From positions 1 through 56,207 of the forward strand of contig CAZGGW010000001.1 of the NCBI GenBank assembly GCA_964525365.1: 56,207 nucleotides of DNA, read 5' to 3'. Below are positions 184-10,625 of the stretch, piece by piece (positions within the stretch are counted from its first letter, which is position 1; each line of letters opens with the position of its first letter). The notes under the pieces were generated by a model. That model had not been told where the DNA came from, searched no databases, and worked only from the letters and a program-made list of their open reading frames with translations. This DNA comes from an uncultured Muribaculaceae bacterium (GTDB lineage Bacteria > Bacillota_I > Bacilli_A > RF39 > UBA660). A program made the translations under genes and the position numbers.

Positions 184-2699
184 TGAAGAAAAAAGAGACA
201 CAAATTATAGAAAAAATATTTGATTATTCACTTGAAGAAATAATGGGAGATAGATTTGGACGATATTCAAAATATATTATTCAAGACAGAGCACTTCCAG
301 ATGTAAGAGATGGACTAAAGCCTGTTCAAAGAAGAATACTTTATTCCATGTATAAAGATAAAAACACCTATGACAGACCAACTAGAAAATCTGCTAAAAG
401 CGTTGGAAACGTAATGGGGCAATATCATCCACATGGGGATTCAAGTATCTATGAAGCAATGGTTCGTATGAGTCAAAAATGGAAGCAAAGAGAAGTACTA
501 ATTGAAATGCAGGGAAATAATGGTTCCATTGATGGAGATGGACCAGCTGCGATGCGTTATACTGAGGCTCGTCTTGCTAAAATAAGTAATATTCTTCTTA
601 AAGATATAGAAAAAGATTGTGTTTTATTTGTGCCAACATTTGATGATGAAAGTTTTGAACCAACTGTTTTACCGGCACATTTTCCAAATTTACTTGTTAA
701 TGGTGCGACTGGTATAAGCGCAGGTTACGCTACAAATATTCCACCACATAATTTAGGAGAAATAATAGATGCAACGATTAAAAGAATCGATAGTCCAGAT
801 TGTAGACTTGATACTATTTTAAATATAGTAAAAGGTCCGGATTTTCCTACTGGAGGAATAATTGAAGGAACAGATGGTATAAAAAAAGCATATCAAACTG
901 GTAAAGGAAAAATAATAGTAAGTAGTAAATATGAATTTATTGATAATAAAAGCACTCCACAAATAATTATTACTCAGATACCATATGATACATTAAAATG
1001 TAACATTATTAAAAAAATAGAAGAAATTAGATTAGATAAAAAAATAGATGGTATAGTTGAAGTTAGAGATGAGTCAGATAAAAATGATGATCTTAGAATA
1101 GCAATTGATTTAAAAAAAGATGCTAAGAAAGACTTAATAGTAAAATATTTGCTTAAGAATACAGATATGCAAGTAAATTATAATTTTAACGTGGTTGCGA
1201 TTGTAAATAGAAGACCTAGAATACTGGGAATTCTTGAAATATTAGATGCATTCATAGCGCATCAAAAAGAAGTAATAACTAAAAGAAGTGAGTTTGATTT
1301 ATCTCATGCTGAAGCAAGACTTCATATTGTAGAAGGTTTTATAAAAGCACTCGATATATTAGATAAAATAATTAAAACAATTAGAAAAAGTAAGAATAAA
1401 CAAGACGCAATTGAAAATTTAATAACTGAATATGATTTTACTAGGTTACAAAGTGAAGCAATAGTAAATATGCAATTGTATAAACTTACGAATACAGATG
1501 TAACACTTTTGAAAGATGAAGCCCAAAGACTTAATTTAATAATAAAAGAATTAAAAGAAATTCTAGGAAGTCCTGAAAAATTAATGACGGTTATGAAAAA
1601 TGAACTTAAGTTAATAAAAAAAGAATATGCTACACCTAGAATTACACAAATAATAGAAGAAGTGACAGATTTACAAATTGATGAACTCGAAATGGTAACT
1701 AAAGAAGATTACGTTGTATGTGTTTCGGCAAGTGGCTATATCAAAAAAGTATCCATTAAAAGTTTTGAGACTTCTAATAAAGAATTAACTGGATTAAAAG
1801 ATAAAGATTATGTAGAAGGATTCTACAAGATAAATAATTTAGATACTATTTTGTTATTTACTAATAAAGGAAATTATATATATATGCCTGTAAGAGAAAT
1901 ACCTGAATATAAATATAAAGATATAGGAATACATATTAGTAATAAATGCAAAATAAGTGAAGAAGAAAGAATAGTAAAAAGTATTGGCGTTACTGATTTT
2001 AATGATGAGTACGTAACTATATTCACAAAAAATGGAATGATAAAAAGAATATTACTAAAAAGTTTTGAAGTTAGTAGATTTTCAAAGGCAATTACTATGT
2101 TTAAATTAAAAGAAAATGATGAAGTAGTTAGTGTTAGTGTAATAAACAGTGATGAACTTGCAATAATTAGTAAAAATGGATATATATTAAAATATAAAAC
2201 TCAAGAAGTTCCAATACTTGGACTCAGAACCAGTGGAGTTAAGTCTATGAAACTTGTAGAAGATGAAATAATAAATGGTTTTGTAATAAATAGTTTGCAT
2301 GAACATATTACTTTGTTTACTGATAAGAGTACTGCAAAAAGAATAAAAGTAAATGAGATTCCGCTTTTTTCAAGAGCAAAGAAAGGATTTTTGATTGCAA
2401 AAAGTCCTAAATCTAAAAAATATAATTTAATAGGAGCTTTTAATAGTGGTAGTAAATCTATCTTTGGACTTATTACTGATGCGATAGGATTTATAAAAAG
2501 TGCAGATATTCCAATTATGGATATGCATAGTGTAGGAAGCAGTATTACTAAGAAGCAAGTGGAAGATGTATTTATTAATAAAAAATTAAAAATTATGACA
2601 AAAAAGTCAGATGAGAATCTTAATAATGAAGATTTATCTAAAGAAAAAGAACCTCAAATATTAACTATGAGTGATTTCTTTGAAGAGTTTAAATTATAG
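183..2699 (+). CDS. parC: DNA topoisomerase IV subunit A
   Basis: 838-aa ORF. The N-terminus GDRFGRYSKYIIQDRALPDVRDGLKPVQRRILYSM is the ParC-type rather than the GyrA-type signature. AAMRYTEARL is the active-site Tyr region. The gene is translationally coupled to the upstream B-subunit gene. Confidence 0.9.
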   Translation: MKKKETQIIEKIFDYSLEEIMGDRFGRYSKYIIQDRALPDVRDGLKPVQRRILYSMYKDKNTYDRPTRKSAKSVGNVMGQYHPHGDSSIYEAMVRMSQKWKQREVLIEMQGNNGSIDGDGPAAMRYTEARLAKISNILLKDIEKDCVLFVPTFDDESFEPTVLPAHFPNLLVNGATGISAGYATNIPPHNLGEIIDATIKRIDSPDCRLDTILNIVKGPDFPTGGIIEGTDGIKKAYQTGKGKIIVSSKYEFIDNKSTPQIIITQIPYDTLKCNIIKKIEEIRLDKKIDGIVEVRDESDKNDDLRIAIDLKKDAKKDLIVKYLLKNTDMQVNYNFNVVAIVNRRPRILGILEILDAFIAHQKEVITKRSEFDLSHAEARLHIVEGFIKALDILDKIIKTIRKSKNKQDAIENLITEYDFTRLQSEAIVNMQLYKLTNTDVTLLKDEAQRLNLIIKELKEILGSPEKLMTVMKNELKLIKKEYATPRITQIIEEVTDLQIDELEMVTKEDYVVCVSASGYIKKVSIKSFETSNKELTGLKDKDYVEGFYKINNLDTILLFTNKGNYIYMPVREIPEYKYKDIGIHISNKCKISEEERIVKSIGVTDFNDEYVTIFTKNGMIKRILLKSFEVSRFSKAITMFKLKENDEVVSVSVINSDELAIISKNGYILKYKTQEVPILGLRTSGVKSMKLVEDEIINGFVINSLHEHITLFTDKSTAKRIKVNEIPLFSRAKKGFLIAKSPKSKKYNLIGAFNSGSKSIFGLITDAIGFIKSADIPIMDMHSVGSSITKKQVEDVFINKKLKIMTKKSDENLNNEDLSKEKEPQILTMSDFFEEFKL

Positions 2700-2732
2700 T
2701 AAAAATATTATTTAAGCATATAATATACTAGG

Positions 2733-3089
2733 GTGAAGCAGATGAAAGAAAAGTTTAAAGAATTTGTAAGGCTAAATCCCAGTTTTTCTTCATACGTAAA
2801 TAGTGGTAAAACCACATGGCAAAAATTATATGAATTATATGATATGTATGGAGAATCTAGTACAATATGGGATGAATTTAGAAAAGCCGAAGAAGTAAAA
2901 CAAAGTGGATTTAATTTAGGAAATATAGTAAATAGTATAAAAGGAATAAATTTAGATGCTTTGGGAGAAAACCTAAACAACATACAAAAAGCAGTTGGAT
3001 TTTTAGCTGATTTGACTGAGCCTAGCAAGAAAAAGGAAGAAGAAAAGAAAAAGGAAGAATCTAAGTTTGATTCATTTTATAACGACTAA
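2733..3089 (+). CDS. YlbD-like small protein (hypothetical, K/E-rich tail)
   Basis: 118-aa ORF. KEFVRLNPSFSSYVNSGKTTWQKLYELYDMYGE resembles Bacillus YlbD as I recall it (not searched). The start is GTG 2733 or ATG 2742. It sits next to a YlbE-like gene, as in Bacillus. Confidence 0.45.
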   Translation: MKQMKEKFKEFVRLNPSFSSYVNSGKTTWQKLYELYDMYGESSTIWDEFRKAEEVKQSGFNLGNIVNSIKGINLDALGENLNNIQKAVGFLADLTEPSKKKEEEKKKEESKFDSFYND

Positions 3090-3313
3090 TGAGTATTGAA
3101 TTATTAAATAAGTTAAATGAAAATCCCCTTTATAAAAAATATATTAGGCACAATTCAAATTGGTATAAAATACTAAATAGAAATCCAAATGAATTTGATA
3201 ATATGGTTAAACAGATGAAAATAGATTATAAAATGCGTACTATAGATAAATTCGATAATATTGTTGATAGTATTGATTTGATAAATAAATTTTTAAAAGT
3301 AACTAACGAGTAA
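3089..3313 (+). CDS. YlbE-like small protein
   Basis: 74-aa ORF whose ATG overlaps the previous stop (TAATG, 3087-3091). NPLYKKYIRHNSNWYKILNRNPNEFD resembles the YlbE-like family (from memory). Confidence 0.45.
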   Translation: MSIELLNKLNENPLYKKYIRHNSNWYKILNRNPNEFDNMVKQMKIDYKMRTIDKFDNIVDSIDLINKFLKVTNE

Positions 3314-3340
3314 GAAATTTTACATTTAAAAAATATATAC

Positions 3341-3370
3341 TTGACTATATATTTTTTAAAATGTTATAAT
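3341..3370 (+). promoter_or_regulatory. Sigma-A-type promoter upstream of the prepilin gene
   Basis: TTGACT (3341-3346), an 18-nt spacer, then an extended -10 TGtTATAAT (3362-3370), about 35 nt upstream of ATG 3406, which is preceded by the RBS AAAGGAA. Confidence 0.5.
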
Positions 3371-3405
3371 TGAAATGTGATAAGATATAGAAAGGAATAG
3401 ATGTT

Positions 3406-3870
3406 ATGTTAAAAAATAAAAAAGGATTTACTTTGGTGGAATTGTTAGCAGTTATTGCAATACTTGCTATTATTATAGCATTTGCATTTCCGAAAATATT
3501 AGAACAATTTAACCAAGCTAAAACAGGAGCGTTTGTAACTCAAGCCCAAAGTATTTATAGAGGAGCAAGTGAAACATATATGACTGAGGAACTCACTGGA
3601 AATGGTGGAGGCACATATTATTATGATGGTACTGAAAGTAGCAGTACTCTTGCATTAGATGATTCAACTACTGTTAAATATTATATAGTTATGACTCCTG
3701 CTGGAATTGTTACAAGTTTCAAAATATATAATGAAAAATATGAAATTATTATTGAAGATAACGCTGGCGTTAAATTAAGTGACATTAAAGAATCTGAACT
3801 AAAATCAAATAATACAGGTGTAACATTTGTAAACCTTACTGTTGCAAAAATGGCCACAGATACGGATTAA
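3406..3870 (+). CDS. Type IV pilin / pseudopilin-like protein (prepilin-type N-terminal cleavage/methylation domain)
   Basis: The N-terminus MLKNKKGFTLVELLAVIAILAIIIAFAFP is the canonical prepilin leader: a Gly cleavage site, F at +1, E at +5 and a hydrophobic helix. The protein is 154 aa. Confidence 0.85.
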   Translation: MLKNKKGFTLVELLAVIAILAIIIAFAFPKILEQFNQAKTGAFVTQAQSIYRGASETYMTEELTGNGGGTYYYDGTESSSTLALDDSTTVKYYIVMTPAGIVTSFKIYNEKYEIIIEDNAGVKLSDIKESELKSNNTGVTFVNLTVAKMATDTD

Positions 3871-3890
3871 TATTGTTATTGTAAGATTAA

Positions 3891-3917
3891 AAAGCAATTT
3901 TTTGAAATTGCTTTTTT
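3891..3917 (+). terminator. Rho-independent terminator after the prepilin gene
   Basis: Perfect 10-bp stem AAAGCAATTT / AAATTGCTTT with loop TTTG, followed by a T-run. Confidence 0.8.
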
Positions 3918-3952
3918 ATTTTGTTTTTAGTACAATAAAGTGGGTGATTAAA

Positions 3953-4810
3953 ATGGATTTAATAATTGGGTCACATGTGTCTTGCACAAGTCTGGAAGGA
4001 TTATATGGTTCTGCTAAAGAAGCAGTGTCTTATGGTGCCAATACTTTTATGATATACACTGGTCCTAATCAAAGTAGTAGTAGAGTTCCTATAAATAAGC
4101 AATTTGTTTTAAAAGCTCATTTATATATGAAGGAAAATAATATAGATATAAATAATGTTATAGTACATGCACCCTTTATAATTAACTTAGCAAATAATAA
4201 AGATGAAAGAAAATATAATTTTTATATTAGTTTTTTAAAGGAAGAAATTAATAGATGTCAACAACTTGGAATCAATAAATTAGTATTACATCCTGGAAGT
4301 GCAACAGATATAGATAGAAAGGTTGCTCTTGATAATGTGGTGTTTGGTATTAATAAAGCTCTTGAAAATGTTGATGATTTCTATTTATGTATAGAATATA
4401 TGTCCGGAAAGGGTAGTGAATTATGTTCCAATATTGAAGAGTTATCTTATATAATTAAAAACACCAGTGTGTATGTATGCTTAGATACTTGCCATATGAA
4501 TGACTCTGGTATTAATCTCAATAAATTCGATTTATTTATGGAAGAATTTGAATCGAAAATTGGAATAGAAAAAATTAAATGCATTCACATAAATGATAGT
4601 AAAAATGAAATTAGATCTCATAAAGATAGACACGAAAACATAGGATATGGCACTATTGGATTTGATAATTTAATTAATATTATATATTACCCTGCATTTA
4701 GAAATATTCCTAAAATATTAGAAACTCCATACATTGGTGAAATGGCTCCGTACAAAGAAGAAATAACTATGATAAGAAATAAAAATTTTTCCTCTTTACT
4801 TAATAAATGA
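3953..4810 (+). CDS. nfo: Endonuclease IV (AP endonuclease, Nfo)
   Basis: Motifs VHAPFIINLAN, LVLHPGS, CLDTCH and ILETP. The track ORF starts at 3842, but that start overlaps the pilin gene and its terminator. ATG 3953 (MDLIIGSHVS) matches the normal Nfo N-terminus. Confidence 0.9.
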   Translation: MDLIIGSHVSCTSLEGLYGSAKEAVSYGANTFMIYTGPNQSSSRVPINKQFVLKAHLYMKENNIDINNVIVHAPFIINLANNKDERKYNFYISFLKEEINRCQQLGINKLVLHPGSATDIDRKVALDNVVFGINKALENVDDFYLCIEYMSGKGSELCSNIEELSYIIKNTSVYVCLDTCHMNDSGINLNKFDLFMEEFESKIGIEKIKCIHINDSKNEIRSHKDRHENIGYGTIGFDNLINIIYYPAFRNIPKILETPYIGEMAPYKEEITMIRNKNFSSLLNK

Positions 4811-5050
4811 TTTATACTTTTCGTATTTTTCAATAATTTTATTATATAAATTCTCATTTAATGAAGATTTATAATTAAGTATATATTCATAAAAATCACA
4901 TTCTAATATAATATCTATATCTTTTTTTATTAAATTGTATATTAATAGTATTTCGCTTTTAGTAGCGCAAACGCATTCTTTATTTAAATATTTTACTATA
5001 TCATCCTCCGTTAGATTAGAAGCAAATTGTTTTATTAAATTTTTATTCAT
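4796..5050 (-). CDS. Small DUF2624/YqfT-like protein (hypothetical)
   Basis: 84-aa ORF convergent with nfo, with a 15-nt 3' overlap. MNKNLIKQFASNLTEDDIVKYLNK...ILLIYNLIKK resembles B. subtilis YqfT, which neighbours nfo (yqfS) there (from memory). Confidence 0.45.
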   Translation of the reverse strand: MNKNLIKQFASNLTEDDIVKYLNKECVCATKSEILLIYNLIKKDIDIILECDFYEYILNYKSSLNENLYNKIIEKYEKYKSFIK

Positions 5051-5118
5051 AATTTTCCTTTCAATAATTTTATGTTTTAATATATTTTATATTCTTAAGA
5101 AAAAAAATCGTTTATTTG

Positions 5119-5147
5119 TTGCTTTCTAAAAATTCATTTGATATAAT
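5119..5147 (+). promoter_or_regulatory. Sigma-A-type promoter of the four-gene operon
   Basis: TTGCTT (5119-5124), a 17-nt spacer, then an extended -10 TGaTATAAT (5139-5147), 30 nt upstream of ATG 5177, which is preceded by the RBS AAGGGAAG. Confidence 0.55.
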
Positions 5148-5176
5148 TTAATAAGAATAAGATAAGGGAAGATAGT

Positions 5177-6280
5177 ATGAATGATAAGCTAACAAGTAAA
5201 TATTTTAAATATAAAGAAAAAAATTACAATAGTTTTATTAGTACAATTACAAGAATGCTTAAAGTAAAACCTTGTGAATTGTGGGAAAATAAGACTTCCT
5301 TTTCTATAACTATTAAGCCTATCGTTGAAGTGTATGTGGAAAGTTATTTATATGGAGCCGAGAAAGACTACAATAAAATAAACAAATATTTCAATTTGAG
5401 TATTCAAAATAATAGAATTATTAATAATATTTTGCTTTGTATTATTAATTATTTTGAAAATAATAATAAAATCGATTCAATTAATGGTAACAAAGATAAT
5501 ATTTTGTATGCTACGATAGTAATATATTTAGCAAATTCATTTGATAAATTAATAAAACCATACGAGAAATTTGATTACAATAATACTTTGAATAAAGTGA
5601 TTGAGATCTTTAAAAATATTAATATATTAATGATTTATGAAACAAAAAGAAAAGATGTAGAAAAAATCGTTTCAATTATAGAATTAAATTGTGAGAAAGA
5701 AAAACGATTTTTGAATTCATTGGAATGTAATATTTCTTATAATAAATATAGAAGCATTACCTCTGGAAACGCTATTTTTTATGTAAAATATATATATATT
5801 TTAAAAGAAATTGAAAAATATAAAGCAGAGGATGTAAAATATGTCTTTAAGAATTTACATCTCGAAGATGAGTTATTCATGAATTGTTATGAATTATTAA
5901 ACATTACGTTGTTAAAACAAACTGTAAGAGGGCTTTCATATCAATATGTGATTCCAATTACAAGTTCAATATATAATAAAAATTCAAATATGAAGAAAAT
6001 AAACAAAATATTTTGTTTAGACTTTTATAAAAAATCTATTATGTTTATAATAAATTATAAAGATTATATTGAAAATAGGAAACAGGTCGAAAATTTAGAG
6101 AACGATTATAAAATAATTATTAACTTAGAAAATGAGAATGAAATAGATCCAATTCTTTTAAAAGATAAATTGGTGTTTGGCGAGAAAGAGTTGTTAGAAA
6201 GATATAAATTAGAAAACACAATAGAGAAAAAAATGGGAATGTTATTAACAGAAAATGAGCTGTTAAATATAGGAGGATAA
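5177..6280 (+). CDS. Hypothetical 367-aa cytoplasmic protein, first gene of the McrB-like operon (gene A)
   Basis: Long uninterrupted ORF with an RBS. No TM segment and no motif I can assign. Its 3' end carries the GGAGG RBS for the next gene, whose ATG lies one spacer nucleotide after its stop codon. Confidence 0.7.
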   Translation: MNDKLTSKYFKYKEKNYNSFISTITRMLKVKPCELWENKTSFSITIKPIVEVYVESYLYGAEKDYNKINKYFNLSIQNNRIINNILLCIINYFENNNKIDSINGNKDNILYATIVIYLANSFDKLIKPYEKFDYNNTLNKVIEIFKNINILMIYETKRKDVEKIVSIIELNCEKEKRFLNSLECNISYNKYRSITSGNAIFYVKYIYILKEIEKYKAEDVKYVFKNLHLEDELFMNCYELLNITLLKQTVRGLSYQYVIPITSSIYNKNSNMKKINKIFCLDFYKKSIMFIINYKDYIENRKQVENLENDYKIIINLENENEIDPILLKDKLVFGEKELLERYKLENTIEKKMGMLLTENELLNIGG

Positions 6281-6281
6281 A

Positions 6282-7790
6282 ATGAGTATATATGGAGAAT
6301 TTTTTATAGATTTTATGAAACCTTTCTTTCAAGGATTCCTATCAATTTTTGAAGCATTATTTAAAGGATTGTTTGAAATGTTTAATATTCTTGGCTATGT
6401 TGATATAGTAAAAGAATATTATTCTCAAATGGGTGGCTCCGGTACGATAATAGTAATACTTTCATCAATCTGTTTAATAATTATTTTTGGTGTAATAATA
6501 CTTTTAATAGTACTTGGTATAAAAAGATTAGTAAAATATAGAAAAAATCTAACCAAGCAAGAAGCATTGGTTGATGAGATTGAAGATTTGAATGCTGACG
6601 TGTATAGACTAAAGGCAGAAAATGAAAAGTTTATGAATATGGCAGATCCTGAAAATGGTGAAGTTGAATATGATGAAAACGGGAATGTTATTAATAAACT
6701 TAAAGAAGGAGAAAGTCGTTTCTTTAAACTTACTGAAGTGGATAAACAAATGGAAAGTTATGTTCCACGTGCTTTTAATGAAACAATTGGATTAAATGAA
6801 TTCTGTATAGCATTTAAAAATTATGCTGCATCCAAGTTAAAACTATACTATGATGATAAAATAATTCGTTTATTTATTTCTGCTTTTGCTTCAAATAGAT
6901 TAATTATTTTACAAGGTATCTCTGGTACAGGTAAAACTTCGTTGGCTTATGCGTTTGGTAATTTAATACAGAATGAAGCCGCAATAGCTTCTGTTCAACC
7001 ATCATGGAGAGATAGTACCGAATTATTTGGATATTTTAATGAATTCACTAAAAGATTTAATGAAACAGAAGTATTAAGTAATATGTATGAAGCTACTTAC
7101 AGAGAAGATATATTTATTACATTACTTGATGAAATGAATATATCACGTGTTGAATATTATTTTGCTGAAATGCTATCAATTTTAGAGCTTCCTAGTAGAG
7201 AAGAGTGGGTAATAGAACTTGTACCTAATAGTTGGGTGAATGATCCAAAGAAAATAATCGGTGGTAAGTTACAAATACCAGCAAACATGTGGTATATTGG
7301 TACTATAAATAACGATGATTCAACATTTATGGTAACTGATAAAGTATATGATCGTGCTATGCCAATTGAAATTAATACAAAAACGGAAAAATTTGATGCA
7401 CCAGAAACAGAAGGTATAAGTATAAAAGCAGAATATTTTGAATCGCTATTTAAAAAAGCTCAGCAAGAACATCCTTTAAGTTCAGAATTATTAGATAAAT
7501 TAAATAAAATGGATGAATATGTAATAGGACATTTCAGATTGGCTTTTGGTAACAGAATTGTTAAACAAATGAAAGATTTTATCCCAGTATATGTTGCATG
7601 TGGTGGGGATGAATTGGAAGCATTTGATTATGTAGTGGCACACAAAATATTACGTAAATTTGATCAATTAAATATGTCTTATGTAAGAAATGAAATAGAT
7701 CCGTTTATAAAATATTTAAATGAATTATTTGGTGAAAATAAAATGTTAGAATGTTTAGAAGTATTAGGTAATCTTAAAAAAATGATATAG
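6282..7790 (+). CDS. Membrane-anchored McrB-clade AAA+ GTPase (gene B)
   Basis: Walker A GISGTGKTS (nt 6915-6941), Walker B LLDEMNISRVEYYFAEMLSILE (nt about 7123-7188) and the McrB-family NxxD signature INNDDS (NNDD at nt 7308-7319). VQPSWRDSTELFGYF parallels the McrB segment between the Walker motifs. The N-terminus has an amphipathic stretch, one TM helix (aa 54-80) and a coiled-coil-like segment (aa about 90-120) where a DNA-reader domain would normally sit. Confidence 0.8.
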   Translation: MSIYGEFFIDFMKPFFQGFLSIFEALFKGLFEMFNILGYVDIVKEYYSQMGGSGTIIVILSSICLIIIFGVIILLIVLGIKRLVKYRKNLTKQEALVDEIEDLNADVYRLKAENEKFMNMADPENGEVEYDENGNVINKLKEGESRFFKLTEVDKQMESYVPRAFNETIGLNEFCIAFKNYAASKLKLYYDDKIIRLFISAFASNRLIILQGISGTGKTSLAYAFGNLIQNEAAIASVQPSWRDSTELFGYFNEFTKRFNETEVLSNMYEATYREDIFITLLDEMNISRVEYYFAEMLSILELPSREEWVIELVPNSWVNDPKKIIGGKLQIPANMWYIGTINNDDSTFMVTDKVYDRAMPIEINTKTEKFDAPETEGISIKAEYFESLFKKAQQEHPLSSELLDKLNKMDEYVIGHFRLAFGNRIVKQMKDFIPVYVACGGDELEAFDYVVAHKILRKFDQLNMSYVRNEIDPFIKYLNELFGENKMLECLEVLGNLKKMI

Positions 7791-7803
7791 AAAGGGAAAA
7801 TAT

Positions 7804-8886
7804 ATGGATAATAATTTAGTTGAACTCATTAATGGAATTAGTGAAATTGATGTAAAAACCTTTGTTAGTCAAACTAAAAGTGATTTTTTAGTTCGTACGT
7901 CTACTGAAAGCGTTAAATATGATTTTAGTTGGATTAATATGATTGAAGAATCATTACCATATATTGATAATATAATAAGAAATCCCAGACGTTTTATGGT
8001 ACCCGAAGAGGAAGTTGTAATAATTGAAAAGACAAAAAAAGTTACTAAAGATAGTATAAAACATTTGGCACAGCACACTTCATTAATTAGAGATGTTGAA
8101 CCAGATGGTACGGTTAAACCTTCTAAGTTATTGAATACTTATAAAGAAGAAACTATAGATTTATATGAAAACAGATTTATTTACTCGTTACTTAAAAATT
8201 TGTATGTTTTTATGTTAAATCAATCAAGTTTTTTACCGGTAGCCTCTTATAGCAGCAGGATTAAAAAGGTTCAGTATAGAGCCCAAACTAAAATAAAAAA
8301 AGAAAATATTCGTATGAATTTAGTTTTAGAAAGCACATACAAAGAAGAAAGTAATGAAGATATAAGTAAAATTCAGGAAAGAATAAAAAATATTAATCAA
8401 ATAGTGAGTGATTTTAATTCTAGCGCTTTTATGAAGAATTTGGTTAATATTTCTCCAGTTAAATCTCCAATTAGAAGAACAAATGTCATTTTAAAAGATC
8501 AAAATTTTAGAAAAGCACTTGAATTATGGGAATTTTTAGAAGAATATAATTTGAATGATCCAACTAAGAAAGAAAAAAGTGAAGTAGAAGATAGTAATTC
8601 ATTAATAAAAAACAAATACGATTTAACTTACTTTATTAACTATGATGCTTTAGAAAGAAAAATTGAAAATACAAATAAATCTCTAAGTGAAATGTACCTC
8701 ACAAAAATCATTGATGAAATGATAAAAAATAACACTAATGTTTCGGATATTAAAAAACTTATAACAAAGGAATTTAATAGTGCCGTTAAGAGAAAAGAAA
8801 AGTATAATAAAGAAATATGTGATTATTTTAAATTATTGAGGGAAGCTCAAGATAAGATGATATCTAAAGCAATTAAATTAATTTAG
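7804..8886 (+). CDS. McrC N-terminal / DUF2357-like protein without a recognisable nuclease domain (gene C)
   Basis: It sits immediately downstream of the McrB-like gene, in the canonical mcrB-mcrC order. IDLYENRFIYSLLKNL (ENRF at nt 8167-8178), the upstream LPYIDNIIRNPRRFMVPEEEVVIIEK, and later NVILKDQNFRKALELWEFL resemble the conserved blocks of DUF2357/McrC N-terminal regions. The protein is only 360 aa and ends in a K/E-rich helical tail. Confidence 0.55.
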   Translation: MDNNLVELINGISEIDVKTFVSQTKSDFLVRTSTESVKYDFSWINMIEESLPYIDNIIRNPRRFMVPEEEVVIIEKTKKVTKDSIKHLAQHTSLIRDVEPDGTVKPSKLLNTYKEETIDLYENRFIYSLLKNLYVFMLNQSSFLPVASYSSRIKKVQYRAQTKIKKENIRMNLVLESTYKEESNEDISKIQERIKNINQIVSDFNSSAFMKNLVNISPVKSPIRRTNVILKDQNFRKALELWEFLEEYNLNDPTKKEKSEVEDSNSLIKNKYDLTYFINYDALERKIENTNKSLSEMYLTKIIDEMIKNNTNVSDIKKLITKEFNSAVKRKEKYNKEICDYFKLLREAQDKMISKAIKLI

Positions 8887-8889
8887 TAA

Positions 8890-8918
8890 TTGTAAAAAAT
8901 ATATCTATTTTGTATAAT
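8890..8918 (+). promoter_or_regulatory. Possible internal promoter in front of gene D
   Basis: TTGTAA (8890-8895), a 17-nt spacer, then TATAAT (8913-8918) with TG immediately upstream. GGAGGA lies before ATG 8935. Such a match could arise by chance in AT-rich DNA. Confidence 0.3.
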
Positions 8919-8934
8919 AATATGTGGAGGAACT

Positions 8935-10344
8935 ATGGATAAAGACAATGAGAATAAATCAAAACAAGCGAAAAAAGTTGAAACTAAAGATGACATTTCT
9001 AAAAAAATAGATGATATTGTTAATAAAAGAAAAAAAGAAAATGAAGAACAAGAAGATTTAGTTAAAAATTTTAAGCCTCAAATTGATAAAGAAAGATTGG
9101 ATTTAACAGAGTTTGATCAAAAAGAGGAACAAGAGCAATTCAATATAATCAAAGAAATTTTAACTAGAATGTATGGTGATAATTTAGAAGTTACTAATAC
9201 AATGATTTTCAAGTGTGTTAGATTAACTTGTAATAAGAAAGATATTACTACTTATTTACCATGTAATTTAATGGTTGATAAAAAGAAGAACGAATTAATA
9301 TTTCAGTTTATAAAAAGCAAAAAAATTAATCCAGTGATTTTTGTTCTTGCAGTTTTTGCTTTCTTAATTGCAACAGCCGCTAGTACATATTCTGCGACTA
9401 TTTATATGAAAAGAGCAAAATTAAATAAAGATATAGACGGAGACAAAATTCCTGATATTAATATAGATTTAAATTCTGATGATACAGCTGACATTAACAT
9501 TGATATAAATGATGATAACAAGCCAGATGTAAATATAGACTATTATAGTAATTGGAGTTCTGTATTTAATATTGATACAACTGGTGATGGAAAAGCTGAC
9601 TCAAACTTAGTAACAGATGCAAGTACTGATGAATTATATAAAAACTGTAAATTGAATTGTGATATAGATGGAGACGGTTGGCCCGAAGTTAATTTAGATA
9701 CTGATGGTGATGGTGTAGCAAACTTTAATATTGATTTAGATAAAGATAAAATCCCAGACTTAAATATAGATTTGGATGGTGATATGAAATGTGACATTAT
9801 GTGCGACACTAATGATGATAACAAATGTGATTTGAATTGTATATATTCTGATAGTGGATACAAAGAAAATGGAAGTTCTAGTGAGACTGGTAATCCTAAT
9901 GCGGGTACGGAATCAGCATCTTTAAAAATTGTGTATAGTGAGAATAGCTTAGTAACAGCTGAAAATATATTTCCAACAGATCAAGAAGGAATAAGTACAG
10001 AAGTTCCGGATAAAATACTTACAGTAGAAAATAAAAGCACGATAAAGTTAAAATATAGTATAAAATTAATAGTTTATACAAATACATTTAATGTAAACGG
10101 ACATAATAATTTTCAGTATAAAATATCTTCTAGTAATGGTGGATATGAAACAGATTGGACCGCTGCGCCTACATCAACTACTGTAATAAAGTATGACATA
10201 ATAATAAAACCTAAAGTTATACAAAAATATACATTCTCACTAAGATTAAAAGGAACGGGAACAAATCAGAATTATGACCAAGGAAAAGAATTTAAGGCAA
10301 AAATAGAGGTTAATACTACAGATACGTTATCTGAAGTTCAGTAG
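8935..10344 (+). CDS. Single-pass membrane protein with Asp-rich Ca-binding-like repeats and a beta-rich C-terminal ectodomain (gene D)
   Basis: 469 aa. K/E-rich N-terminal region of about 130 aa with 3 Cys, then a TM helix at aa about 131-157 (INPVIFVLAVFAFLIATAASTYSATIY). Aa 166-301 carry DxDxDG/N..PD(I/V)N(I/L)D repeats. Aa about 320-469 are rich in alternating beta-like sequence. Confidence 0.75.
   Translation: MDKDNENKSKQAKKVETKDDISKKIDDIVNKRKKENEEQEDLVKNFKPQIDKERLDLTEFDQKEEQEQFNIIKEILTRMYGDNLEVTNTMIFKCVRLTCNKKDITTYLPCNLMVDKKKNELIFQFIKSKKINPVIFVLAVFAFLIATAASTYSATIYMKRAKLNKDIDGDKIPDINIDLNSDDTADINIDINDDNKPDVNIDYYSNWSSVFNIDTTGDGKADSNLVTDASTDELYKNCKLNCDIDGDGWPEVNLDTDGDGVANFNIDLDKDKIPDLNIDLDGDMKCDIMCDTNDDNKCDLNCIYSDSGYKENGSSSETGNPNAGTESASLKIVYSENSLVTAENIFPTDQEGISTEVPDKILTVENKSTIKLKYSIKLIVYTNTFNVNGHNNFQYKISSSNGGYETDWTAAPTSTTVIKYDIIIKPKVIQKYTFSLRLKGTGTNQNYDQGKEFKAKIEVNTTDTLSEVQ
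9430..9837 (+). repeat. Coding repeat: degenerate Asp-rich units (thrombospondin type-3-like / DxDxDG Ca-binding-like)
   Basis: DIDGDKIPDINIDLNSDDTADINIDINDDNKPDVNID ... CDIDGDGWPEVNLDTDGDGVANFNIDLDKDKIPDLNIDLDGDMKCDIMCDTNDDNKCDLNC. About 9-10 degenerate units are seen in the translation. Confidence 0.7.
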
Positions 10345-10360
10345 TCATCATGTTTTTAAA

Positions 10361-10389
10361 GTTAGAAATGGGATTTTCTAACTTTTTTT
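10361..10389 (+). terminator. Rho-independent terminator of the four-gene operon
   Basis: Stem GTTAGAAA / TTTCTAAC (8 bp), a 6-nt loop, then T7. Confidence 0.8.
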
Positions 10390-10454
10390 AATATTTTGAT
10401 TTTAATAATCATTAAGTTATGATATAATAAATACGATTTAAGGAGGTGTTTTTG

Positions 10455-10625
10455 ATGGCAAAGAAAGAAAATAGAGAAAAAGTAGCATTGAAGTGTTCTG
10501 TTTGCGGTGAAATTGGATATCTGACAAACAAAAACAAACAAAATACTAATGAAAAATTAGAAATGAAGAAATTTTGTAAAAAGTGTAGAAAAACTACATT
10601 ACATAATGAAAGAAAGGCTAGTTAA
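10455..10625 (+). CDS. rpmG: 50S ribosomal protein L33 (Zn-ribbon form)
   Basis: 56-aa ORF missing from the track: MAKKENREKVALKCSVCGEIGYLTNKNKQNTNEKLEMKKFCKKCRKTTLHNERKAS. It has the two CxxC pairs and KxxxH pattern of L33. AGGAGG RBS at 10441-10446, with an extended -10 TGaTATAAT upstream. Confidence 0.85.
   Translation: MAKKENREKVALKCSVCGEIGYLTNKNKQNTNEKLEMKKFCKKCRKTTLHNERKAS

Follow-up and report, generated by a model that had tools for sequence, protein, structure and literature searches.

A nuclease-less DUF2357 protein as the probable partner of a membrane-anchored McrB-like GTPase in uncultured gut Bacilli

McrBC is the textbook GTP-driven restriction enzyme. In the canonical systems of Escherichia coli and Thermococcus gammatolerans, an McrB-type AAA+ GTPase stands beside a DUF2357-type partner, and a finger of the partner reaches into the pore of the GTPase hexamer and stimulates GTP hydrolysis (PMC7680126, PMC6624300). 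We analyzed a 56,207-nucleotide stretch of DNA from an uncultured bacterium of the RF39 group (GenBank contig CAZGGW010000001.1, positions 1 to 56,207; hereafter, the window) that carries a four-gene operon, A-B-C-D, with the same kind of pair at its center: gene B encodes an McrB-like GTPase and gene C a DUF2357 protein. The stimulatory principle is likely shared with canonical McrBC, from which this operon differs in that C has no PD-(D/E)xK nuclease, B has a membrane anchor in place of the DNA-binding N-terminal domain and the system is chromosomal and lineage-wide, whereas canonical McrBC is sporadic. Our preferred reading, to which we give a probability of roughly 60%, is that C is an McrC/DUF2357 relative without a nuclease, is the dedicated partner of the membrane GTPase B and contributes to an output at the cell envelope.

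Related systems have been described by Bell et al. (eLife 13:RP94800, PMC11090510), who define DUF2357 as the McrC N-terminal domain. CoCoNuTs, and Type III-A CnuC especially, share with the window operon a coiled-coil NxD GTPase and the possibility of a nuclease-free McrC homologue; in the same source, CoCoNuTs whose McrC nuclease is absent or inactive always adjoin a HEPN or other nuclease. The window locus differs in having no such tandem nuclease, as A, C and D carry no nuclease signature and the neighboring genes are housekeeping genes, and in the membrane anchor of B. A second class, CoCoPALM, is characterized in two published sentences, without experiments, as an NxD GTPase fused to an FtsB-like transmembrane (TM) helix and coiled coil, with coiled coils on both the McrB and the McrC homologues and an association with signal peptidases; its analysis is deferred there to a 'forthcoming publication' (PMC11090510). 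A literature search found no follow-up paper on CoCoPALM, and the brevity of the description makes a finer comparison impossible.

On the features that are described, the window operon probably belongs with the CoCoPALM-type systems. B combines a TM helix and a coiled coil with a signature loop compatible with NxD plus a further D, C has a coiled coil, and SipW-type signal peptidases flank orthologous B and C genes in sister loci. The window itself has gene D instead of a signal peptidase or YAWF-type secreted protein, and so is a SipW-less variant of the class. The class had already been named in the literature (CoCoPALM, PMC11090510), though not characterized. An initial annotation of this DNA, which had presented C as an McrC-like module without a visible nuclease and, on that condition, in a system with some other output, is supported in part. 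A keyword search of the main text of PMC11090510 found no mention of linkage to the division and cell wall (dcw) cluster or of the conserved gene A, both of which we describe below.

Gene C (7804-8886; all features of the operon that we locate by window position lie on the + strand) encodes a 360-amino-acid (aa) protein. Its open reading frame (ORF) is intact, with an ATG start, a TAG TAA double stop and the purine-rich, ribosome-binding-site-like GAAAGGGAAAATAT immediately 5' of the ATG. The match of Pfam DUF2357 (PF09823) to residues 24-139 is far above chance: its E value is 9.1e-10, and its 38.6 bits exceed the gathering score of 23.3. No NCBIfam or PADLOC model matches. The three blocks that the initial annotation had quoted as typical of the N-terminal part of DUF2357/McrC proteins are present at residues 51-76, 116-137 and 224-248. 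A search of 5.8 billion proteins returned 1481 relatives of C at E<=1e-3, and the best 120 of these are 360-371 aa long with DUF2357 as their sole Pfam domain. Because its close relatives share its length, C is not a truncation.

Conservation in C, read from an alignment of 21 diverse homologues and from 82 sequences of related loci, is concentrated in two regions. The most conserved part, residues 40-136 (7921-8211), falls within the DUF2357 match and holds the densest run of positions that are at least 85% conserved in the 82 sequences, including the motifs IRNPRRF, EE, HLAQHT, DG and EET.DLYENRF. The second block, residues 218-246 (8455-8541), reads PVkSPIRRTNVILKdQNFrKALELWEFLE, with the family consensus PV.SPIR.TNVILK..NF.KALELWEFLE, and contains the invariant basic residues R224 and K231; it may form a helix bundle that contacts the GTPase. 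Together with R59, R62 and R124, these two make up the candidate invariant basic residues of the protein. Beyond residue 250, six positions reach 85% conservation across the 82 homologues. Relatives are frequently longer in a representative library of 1.84 billion proteins, where 1880 matched at E<=1e-3, often with 450-1140 aa. These long forms keep the 360-aa core complete and add charged, K/E/A-rich tails of 100-750 residues, and they retain the second block as PPIMRTNVILKNPNFKK.

We modeled C with AlphaFold2 (AF2) from the family alignment, at a mean pLDDT (the predicted score in the local distance difference test) of 75 and a predicted template modeling (pTM) score of 0.47. In this model, helices at residues 42-59 and 121-142 flank a low-confidence segment, 60-120 (pLDDT 40-55 over 61-120). 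A long two-stranded beta ribbon follows at residues 149-182 (8248-8349; DSSP strands 149-164 and 167-182; pLDDT 84-90), in a region of variable sequence, and leads into helices at 187-250 and a single strand at 254-263. The chain ends in an antiparallel helical hairpin, a coiled coil, at residues 266-359 (8599-8880; helices 266-308 and 313-359), in agreement with the helical tail expected from the initial reading of the sequence. The hairpin is charged and poorly conserved, stands in the position of the McrC nuclease and, with the K/E/A-rich extensions of the relatives, provides the coiled coil on the McrC homologue that CoCoPALM systems have.

Several lines of evidence bear on the absence of a nuclease, which the initial annotation had proposed and which they uphold. 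The AF2 model contains no four-stranded alpha/beta core and neither it nor Foldseek reveals a restriction-endonuclease-like fold: a Foldseek search of 350,542 PDB chains had no match at E<=1e-3, and none of its weaker matches is a nuclease. No nuclease model in Pfam, NCBIfam or PADLOC matches C, and no D…(D/E)xK arrangement is conserved across the 82 homologues; K231 is not part of a (D/E)xK motif because position 229 is an invariant Ile. The two stretches singled out earlier as weak candidates for a catalytic motif, LVLESTYK (174-181) and YDALERK (279-285), are both unconserved in the C family, and we rejected both. A Pfam scan of ten long relatives found no nuclease domain, bar one probable chimeric fusion, and the tails of the eight sequences inspected are mostly charged and of low complexity. 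We conclude with high confidence that C is a nuclease-less DUF2357 partner of an McrB-like GTPase.

The top Foldseek matches of C, TolC and CapZ, are meaningless (E > 0.009, low TM-scores). The exceptional long relative, P0151 (652 aa, from the representative library), is a C-family protein joined to part of a GajA/OLD-type ATPase-TOPRIM nuclease, namely its C-terminal half; the fusion partner matches PADLOC GajA with an E value of 1.5e-92 and has a truncated ATPase. As a single case that may be a rare effector fusion or, more probably, a chimeric gene call, we did not use it as evidence for an effector. Another homologue, P0055, whose contigs are spread over 74 index blocks of the collection, is called 'peptidase S26B, signal peptidase' by one source, JGI; the name was apparently transferred from a neighboring gene type.

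Gene B (6282-7790; 502 aa) encodes an McrB-type AAA+ protein with an intact Walker A motif, Walker B motif and signature loop, one TM helix and a coiled coil. E. coli McrB was the sole family matched by B in a phmmer search of the PDB (E 5e-6), and hhalign aligned the B family with E. coli McrB at a probability of 95.7% (E 9.6e-9); the PADLOC model PDC-M26A matches B over the GTPase core with an E value of 1.7e-39. The Walker A motif, GISGTGKT (residues 212-219; 6915-6938), is invariant in the family and aligned with GPPGVGKT of E. coli McrB, and the Walker B motif, LLDEMN, also lines up with that protein. The signature loop N343-N-D-D346 (7308-7319), within GTINNDDST, is invariant in 82 sequences and is the equivalent of McrB MNxxDRS; it aligns without gaps with MNTADRS of E. 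coli McrB. An NxxD reading of the loop is also allowed, and the loop is compatible with the 'NxD usually followed by E or a second D' given for the NxD clade in PMC11090510. Overall, 219 of the 502 residues of B are at least 85% conserved (82 sequences).

The membrane anchor of B lies at residues 49-86 (6426-6539), the single strong hydrophobic segment of the protein (maximum of 3.35 in a 19-aa Kyte-Doolittle window), and is followed directly by KRLVKYRK, which marks the cytoplasmic side. Next comes a juxtamembrane coiled coil at residues ~88-120 (6543-6641), the 'FtsB/DivIC-like' part of the protein. Because this coiled coil sits between the TM helix with its basic stretch and the GTPase, which must be cytoplasmic, we place it in the cytoplasm as well. 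Its matches are weak and below threshold (DivIC, E 0.1; ZapB, E 0.24), and the B orthologue of sister locus L065 matches FtsL TIGR02209 weakly, at E 0.0095. Similarity of the B N-terminus to FtsB was not significant (hhalign 4% against E. coli FtsB; DivIC matches in 2 of 20 family members); the architecture, a TM helix followed by a coiled coil, is that described for CoCoPALM GTPases.

Eleven sister loci of the CAG-524/CAG-1000 type (L065, positions 759-10472, and L052, L055, L059, L062, L076, L077, L079, L082, L084 and L085) encode orthologues of B (53-57% identity) and C (41-44%) in a different setting. Upstream of B they carry, in order, genes for a 371-aa protein, a 230-aa TM protein, a 367-aa secreted protein and a 184-aa peptidase; after B come C, three secreted proteins (385, 349 and 191 aa) and a 181-aa peptidase. 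BLAST found neither A nor D in these loci, and by hhalign gene A is homologous to the gene for the 371-aa protein (93.4%, E 2.5e-7). Both peptidases are of the SipW/archaeal type, scoring 88 and 100 bits with TIGR02228 (cut-off 51.85) and matching Pfam Peptidase_S26 too. The four secreted proteins are paralogous and share a hydrophobic N-terminal segment that ends in ...SYAWF..., which we take to resemble the SipW-dependent signal peptides of TasA type. The L065-type locus looks like a complete CoCoPALM locus. Among the ABCD-type loci, the S26 motif occurs in 0 of 76, and BLAST gave weak S26-like ORFs in two, L066 and L086.

Its combination of SipW-type peptidases with several secreted proteins likens the sister arrangement to the SipW-dependent operons for TasA/BsaA-type filaments, of which sipW-bsaABC of C. 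perfringens is an example (PMC11580942). Such operons differ in having no McrB/McrC-like pair, and no TasA homology was detectable in the secreted proteins of the sister loci or in D.

The distribution of the operon points to vertical inheritance. Across one genome per GTDB species, a C relative is present in 231 species representatives, and the best 80 of these are uncultured gut metagenome-assembled genomes labeled Bacilli, Tenericutes, Mollicutes or 'CAG-', which presumably correspond to the RF39-type lineage of GTDB. We then compared 87 sources, namely 86 fetched loci and the window, by BLAST matches to the window proteins. The B-C pair occurs in all 87, with B at 53-67% and C at 41-50% identity to the window proteins, whereas A precedes B in 65 of 87 (20-28% identity) and D after C in 69 of 87 (36-48%). 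The four genes form a compact and conserved operon on the chromosome of low-GC uncultured gut Bacilli, with intergenic gaps of 1, 13 and 48 nucleotides in the window. Neither 50,697 phage genomes nor IMG/VR yielded a C relative, and 72,556 plasmids yielded one distant relative.

That relative (L088, positions 3145-7713) lies on Nostoc linckia plasmid2 (AP018224.1, 107407-111975), with 25% identity to C over 248 aa, as part of a hypothetical protein of 724 aa. The protein encoded before it is also hypothetical, with 796 aa, and a Ser/Thr kinase is encoded nearby; the two hypothetical proteins may be a cyanobacterial CoCoNuT-type pair.

In many related genomes, the operon also lies inside or near the dcw cluster. 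A class-B penicillin-binding protein (PBP), MraY or FtsW is encoded at most 6 kilobases away in 21 of 34 full-length ABCD loci. The order ABCD-PBP-MraY-FtsW is seen in L001, L024 and L061, with ABCD directly upstream of the division PBP-MraY-FtsW genes in L024, L061 and L075; L063 has the order PBP(PBP1/2x-type)-x-ABCD-MurG-MurB, with a DivIB-like gene after MurG-MurB (examples, L024:3402-12701, L061:3294-11404, L063:22-11311 and L001:5417-17086). Across 11 loci, mean pairwise identity is 73% for B and 74% for the adjacent PBP, and divergence is correlated with that of the PBP at Spearman coefficients of 0.85 (B), 0.79 (C) and 0.80 (D); p-values for these correlations are not meaningful because the pairs are not independent. 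The flanks consist of housekeeping or dcw genes, with no mobile or defense genes near the operon. Given these flanks, the occurrence in 231 species, the absence from phages and the PBP-like rate of change, we favor a core, vertically inherited operon over a defense island. The initial annotation had assumed a restriction or defense system with a different effector; distribution, conservation and dcw context speak rather for a conserved chromosomal machine associated with the envelope.

C most likely acts as a GTPase-engaging adaptor with an envelope output. An adaptor role with the output elsewhere had been suggested from the start, and it remains the best reading given the DUF2357 match, the lack of a nuclease and the McrB-type GTPase gene 13 nucleotides upstream; the accompanying suggestion that C stimulates the GTPase is made by analogy. 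On the model of the McrBC structures (PMC7680126), B would form a hexameric ring hanging below the membrane, and C residues ~57-125 would enter this ring as the McrC finger does and tune GTP hydrolysis. We propose this segment as the finger because it is the most conserved part of C and is also not folded alone by AF2. A conserved basic residue of C could then reposition the NNDD loop of B and so stimulate hydrolysis. The coiled-coil tail of C, with A, would couple the motor to a membrane or extracellular client rather than to DNA; this client would be D in the window and, in the sister loci, the SipW-processed and possibly filament-forming secreted proteins. The simplest reading of the C hairpin is as a tether or lever, with A, the cytoplasmic N-domain of D and the coiled coil of B as candidate contacts. 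We place the output at the envelope because the fourth module, which varies, is in every case a membrane-bound or secreted one, whether D or SipW with YAWF-type proteins. That the operon as a whole serves an envelope, surface-structure or division-related function and not defense is a tentative view, which we rate at slightly less than an even chance.

A number of observations weigh against the preferred reading. The AF2 model of C is of moderate quality (pTM 0.47), and segment 60-120 is unresolved in it. Searching the PDB with the C family profile (phmmer/hmmsearch) found no solved McrC, McrC was absent from the Foldseek matches shown for the C model, and hhalign aligned the C family with E. 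coli McrC at a probability of 0.09, pairing just ENRFIxSL with ANRIIKSTL. A profile comparison with McrC, as the initial annotation had proposed, thus gave a Pfam DUF2357 match above cut-off and a negative direct alignment. Without direct likeness to a solved McrC, finger insertion and GTPase stimulation are argued by analogy. These negatives are themselves weak, owing to the moderate model and the use of a single McrC sequence, and E. coli McrC matches Pfam McrBC (PF10117), not DUF2357. The assignment of C as McrC-like draws on its DUF2357 match, the adjacent McrB-type gene and the literature that equates DUF2357 with the McrC N-terminal domain, and from these sequence comparisons the relation appears real but indirect. 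Also on the negative side, the B N-terminus is not significantly similar to E. coli FtsB, and the coiled coil of B would lie on the side of the membrane opposite to the extracytoplasmic coiled coils of FtsB and FtsL. The 56-kilobase window encodes no S26 signal peptidase or YAWF-type secreted protein by tblastn and motif search, and A and D have no recognizable fold or function. The dcw linkage is partial and confounded by common ancestry, which inflates the counts: no dcw gene lies near the operon in the window, in 13 of the 34 full-length loci or in any of the 11 sister loci. Finally, PDC-M26A, the closest PADLOC model of B, is a candidate defense protein, and in the literature the whole NxD clade counts as defense-related.

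These last two points lead to the main rival, a nuclease-independent anti-phage system of the abortive-infection type, in which B-C would sense infection, the membrane would be damaged through the B N-terminus or D and C would act as a regulator. The McrBC ancestry seen in the DUF2357 domain of C and the McrB matches of B would suit this rival, as would the best PADLOC match of B, and TM effectors are common in defense systems. CoCoNuTs, some of whose McrC homologues have no nuclease, are likewise presented as predicted defense systems in PMC11090510. We nevertheless consider this reading unlikely. The architecture is constant within a lineage in which 231 species representatives have a C relative, B changes at the rate of an essential PBP, with which it co-diverges, the flanks are free of mobile and defense genes, and phage and viral collections contain no member of the family and plasmids hardly any. 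Moreover, A, C and D match no PADLOC model, so that B alone matches and a full PDC-M26 system is not recognized; we found no literature on PDC-M26. Somewhat less probable again is that B-C is a dedicated divisome or cell-wall component, akin to FtsL/FtsB/DivIC, in which GTP hydrolysis regulates septal peptidoglycan synthesis and not surface-fiber assembly. The position of ABCD before PBP-MraY-FtsW (L024, L061, L075) or between PBP and MurG-MurB (L063), the weak DivIC, FtsL and ZapB matches on the B coiled coil and the PBP-like conservation of B speak for a division role. It is countered by the loci without a neighboring dcw gene, all 11 sister loci of the SipW type among them, by a coiled coil that would be cytoplasmic, unlike those of FtsB and FtsL, and not significantly similar to FtsB, and by the sister loci in which the same core is tied to secreted proteins and SipW.

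The remaining rivals concern C itself. A PD-(D/E)xK fold might be degenerate rather than absent, hidden in residues ~143-265 as an 'iPD-(D/E)xK'; inactivated folds are reported for some of the related CnuC McrC homologues in PMC11090510, and in this segment of C the elements follow one another as alpha / beta-beta / alpha / alpha / beta and include the very conserved block 218-246. What the model shows there is two 16-residue ribbon strands and one further strand instead of a four-stranded mixed sheet, and block 218-246 has no acidic pair, with the invariant Ile at position 229. Since no nuclease appears even weakly among the top Foldseek matches and no PDDEXK-type Pfam model matches C or ten of its relatives, we regard a cryptic fold as improbable. 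The idea that C is a decaying, functionless McrBC remnant that lost its nuclease by deletion would account for the missing domain, and an AT-rich reduced genome could accumulate such remnants. Against it stand the equal lengths of the homologues (360-371 aa in the best 120 of 1481), the strong conservation of the C motifs, the high constraint on its partner B and an operon order kept among species whose C proteins are just ~45% identical. These conservation data effectively refute decay, and we give it next to no weight.

Beyond the preferred reading, we entertain a broader and rather doubtful possibility: that an McrBC-derived GTPase motor, with B as the GTPase, C as rotor or adaptor and A, has been domesticated as a core envelope machine in a reduced-genome lineage of gut Bacilli. 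GTP hydrolysis would then assemble, anchor or remodel an extracytoplasmic protein, D here and SipW-processed proteins in sister lineages. If true, a restriction-type AAA+ machine would have been exapted for housekeeping morphogenesis, giving a clean example of traffic between defense and cell biology and a candidate housekeeping envelope machine for abundant uncultured bacteria of the human and animal gut. If the operon instead serves defense, it would represent a Type IV relative that has no nuclease and acts at the membrane. Either way, a nuclease-free McrC branch with a membrane-tied motor raises the question of what else such motors are used for. To the named class, our analysis adds a core of three conserved proteins (A, B and C) rather than two, a widespread variant with the Ca-repeat membrane protein D in place of the signal peptidase and an operon that is lineage-wide, chromosomal and often within the dcw cluster, with B constrained like an essential PBP.

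The third core component, gene A (5177-6280), encodes a 367-aa cytoplasmic protein that lacks a TM segment and matches nothing in Pfam, NCBIfam or PADLOC; a Pfam scan of 20 family members gave nothing consistent. Eight of its residues are at least 85% conserved, and its AF2 model is unusable (pLDDT 42). A single-sequence homologue search with A found A alone, and a profile search found just the sister-clade family. De novo designed TIM barrels, which matched its profile in the PDB, were treated as compositional, and an EAL-like C-terminal alpha/beta part was unsupported.

Gene D (8935-10344) encodes a 469-aa bitopic membrane protein in four parts. A conserved cytoplasmic N-domain (residues ~55-125) precedes a TM helix (128-156); then come Asp-rich repeats of the form DxDGDGxxDxNID that contain paired Cys (~164-302), and finally a beta-rich C-terminal domain in which the motif QN.DQG is invariant. 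D has no relative in Pfam or the PDB, and comparing it by hhalign with the YAWF-type proteins secreted from the sister loci gave a negative result. The tandem repeats (9424-9840) look like calcium-binding thrombospondin-type-3 repeats, and their number differs greatly across species, with homologues ranging from 411 to 1027 aa. The TM helix has the consensus …ATYAG…, which is similar to the …ASYAWF… segments at the N-termini of the sister-locus secreted proteins.

Read along the window, the genes around and including the operon are, in order, GyrA/ParC, YlbD, YlbE, pseudopilin, Nfo, A-B-C-D, EF-P, SpoIIIAH-like, GerM-like, L9, DnaB and M23 peptidase. The prepilin-type (N_methyl) pseudopilin gene (3406-3870) lies immediately upstream of nfo (3842-4810). 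As the longest nfo ORF, from a TTG at 3842, would overlap the pseudopilin gene, the true start is probably the ATG at 3953. We rejected Nfo as the missing nuclease, as it takes this position in the window only, and we regard the pseudopilin as coincidental and not a 'pilus' link, since it is near the operon in 8 of 76 loci, all close relatives. In L001 (4396-5290), and also in L002 and L003, a DUF1016/YhcG gene of the PD-(D/E)xK family, split into two ORFs, lies directly upstream of A; it is limited to one species group and not conserved with the operon. A promoter and terminator scan of the AT-rich window gave counts not above those of shuffled sequences, and Rfam had no match in the window at gathering score. 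Over positions 1-56207, the GC content stays at 20-32%, the GC skew is strongly positive and the genes lie almost all on the + strand, except around 32-33 and 52-55 kilobases; skew and gene strand are consistent with a leading-strand chromosomal segment.

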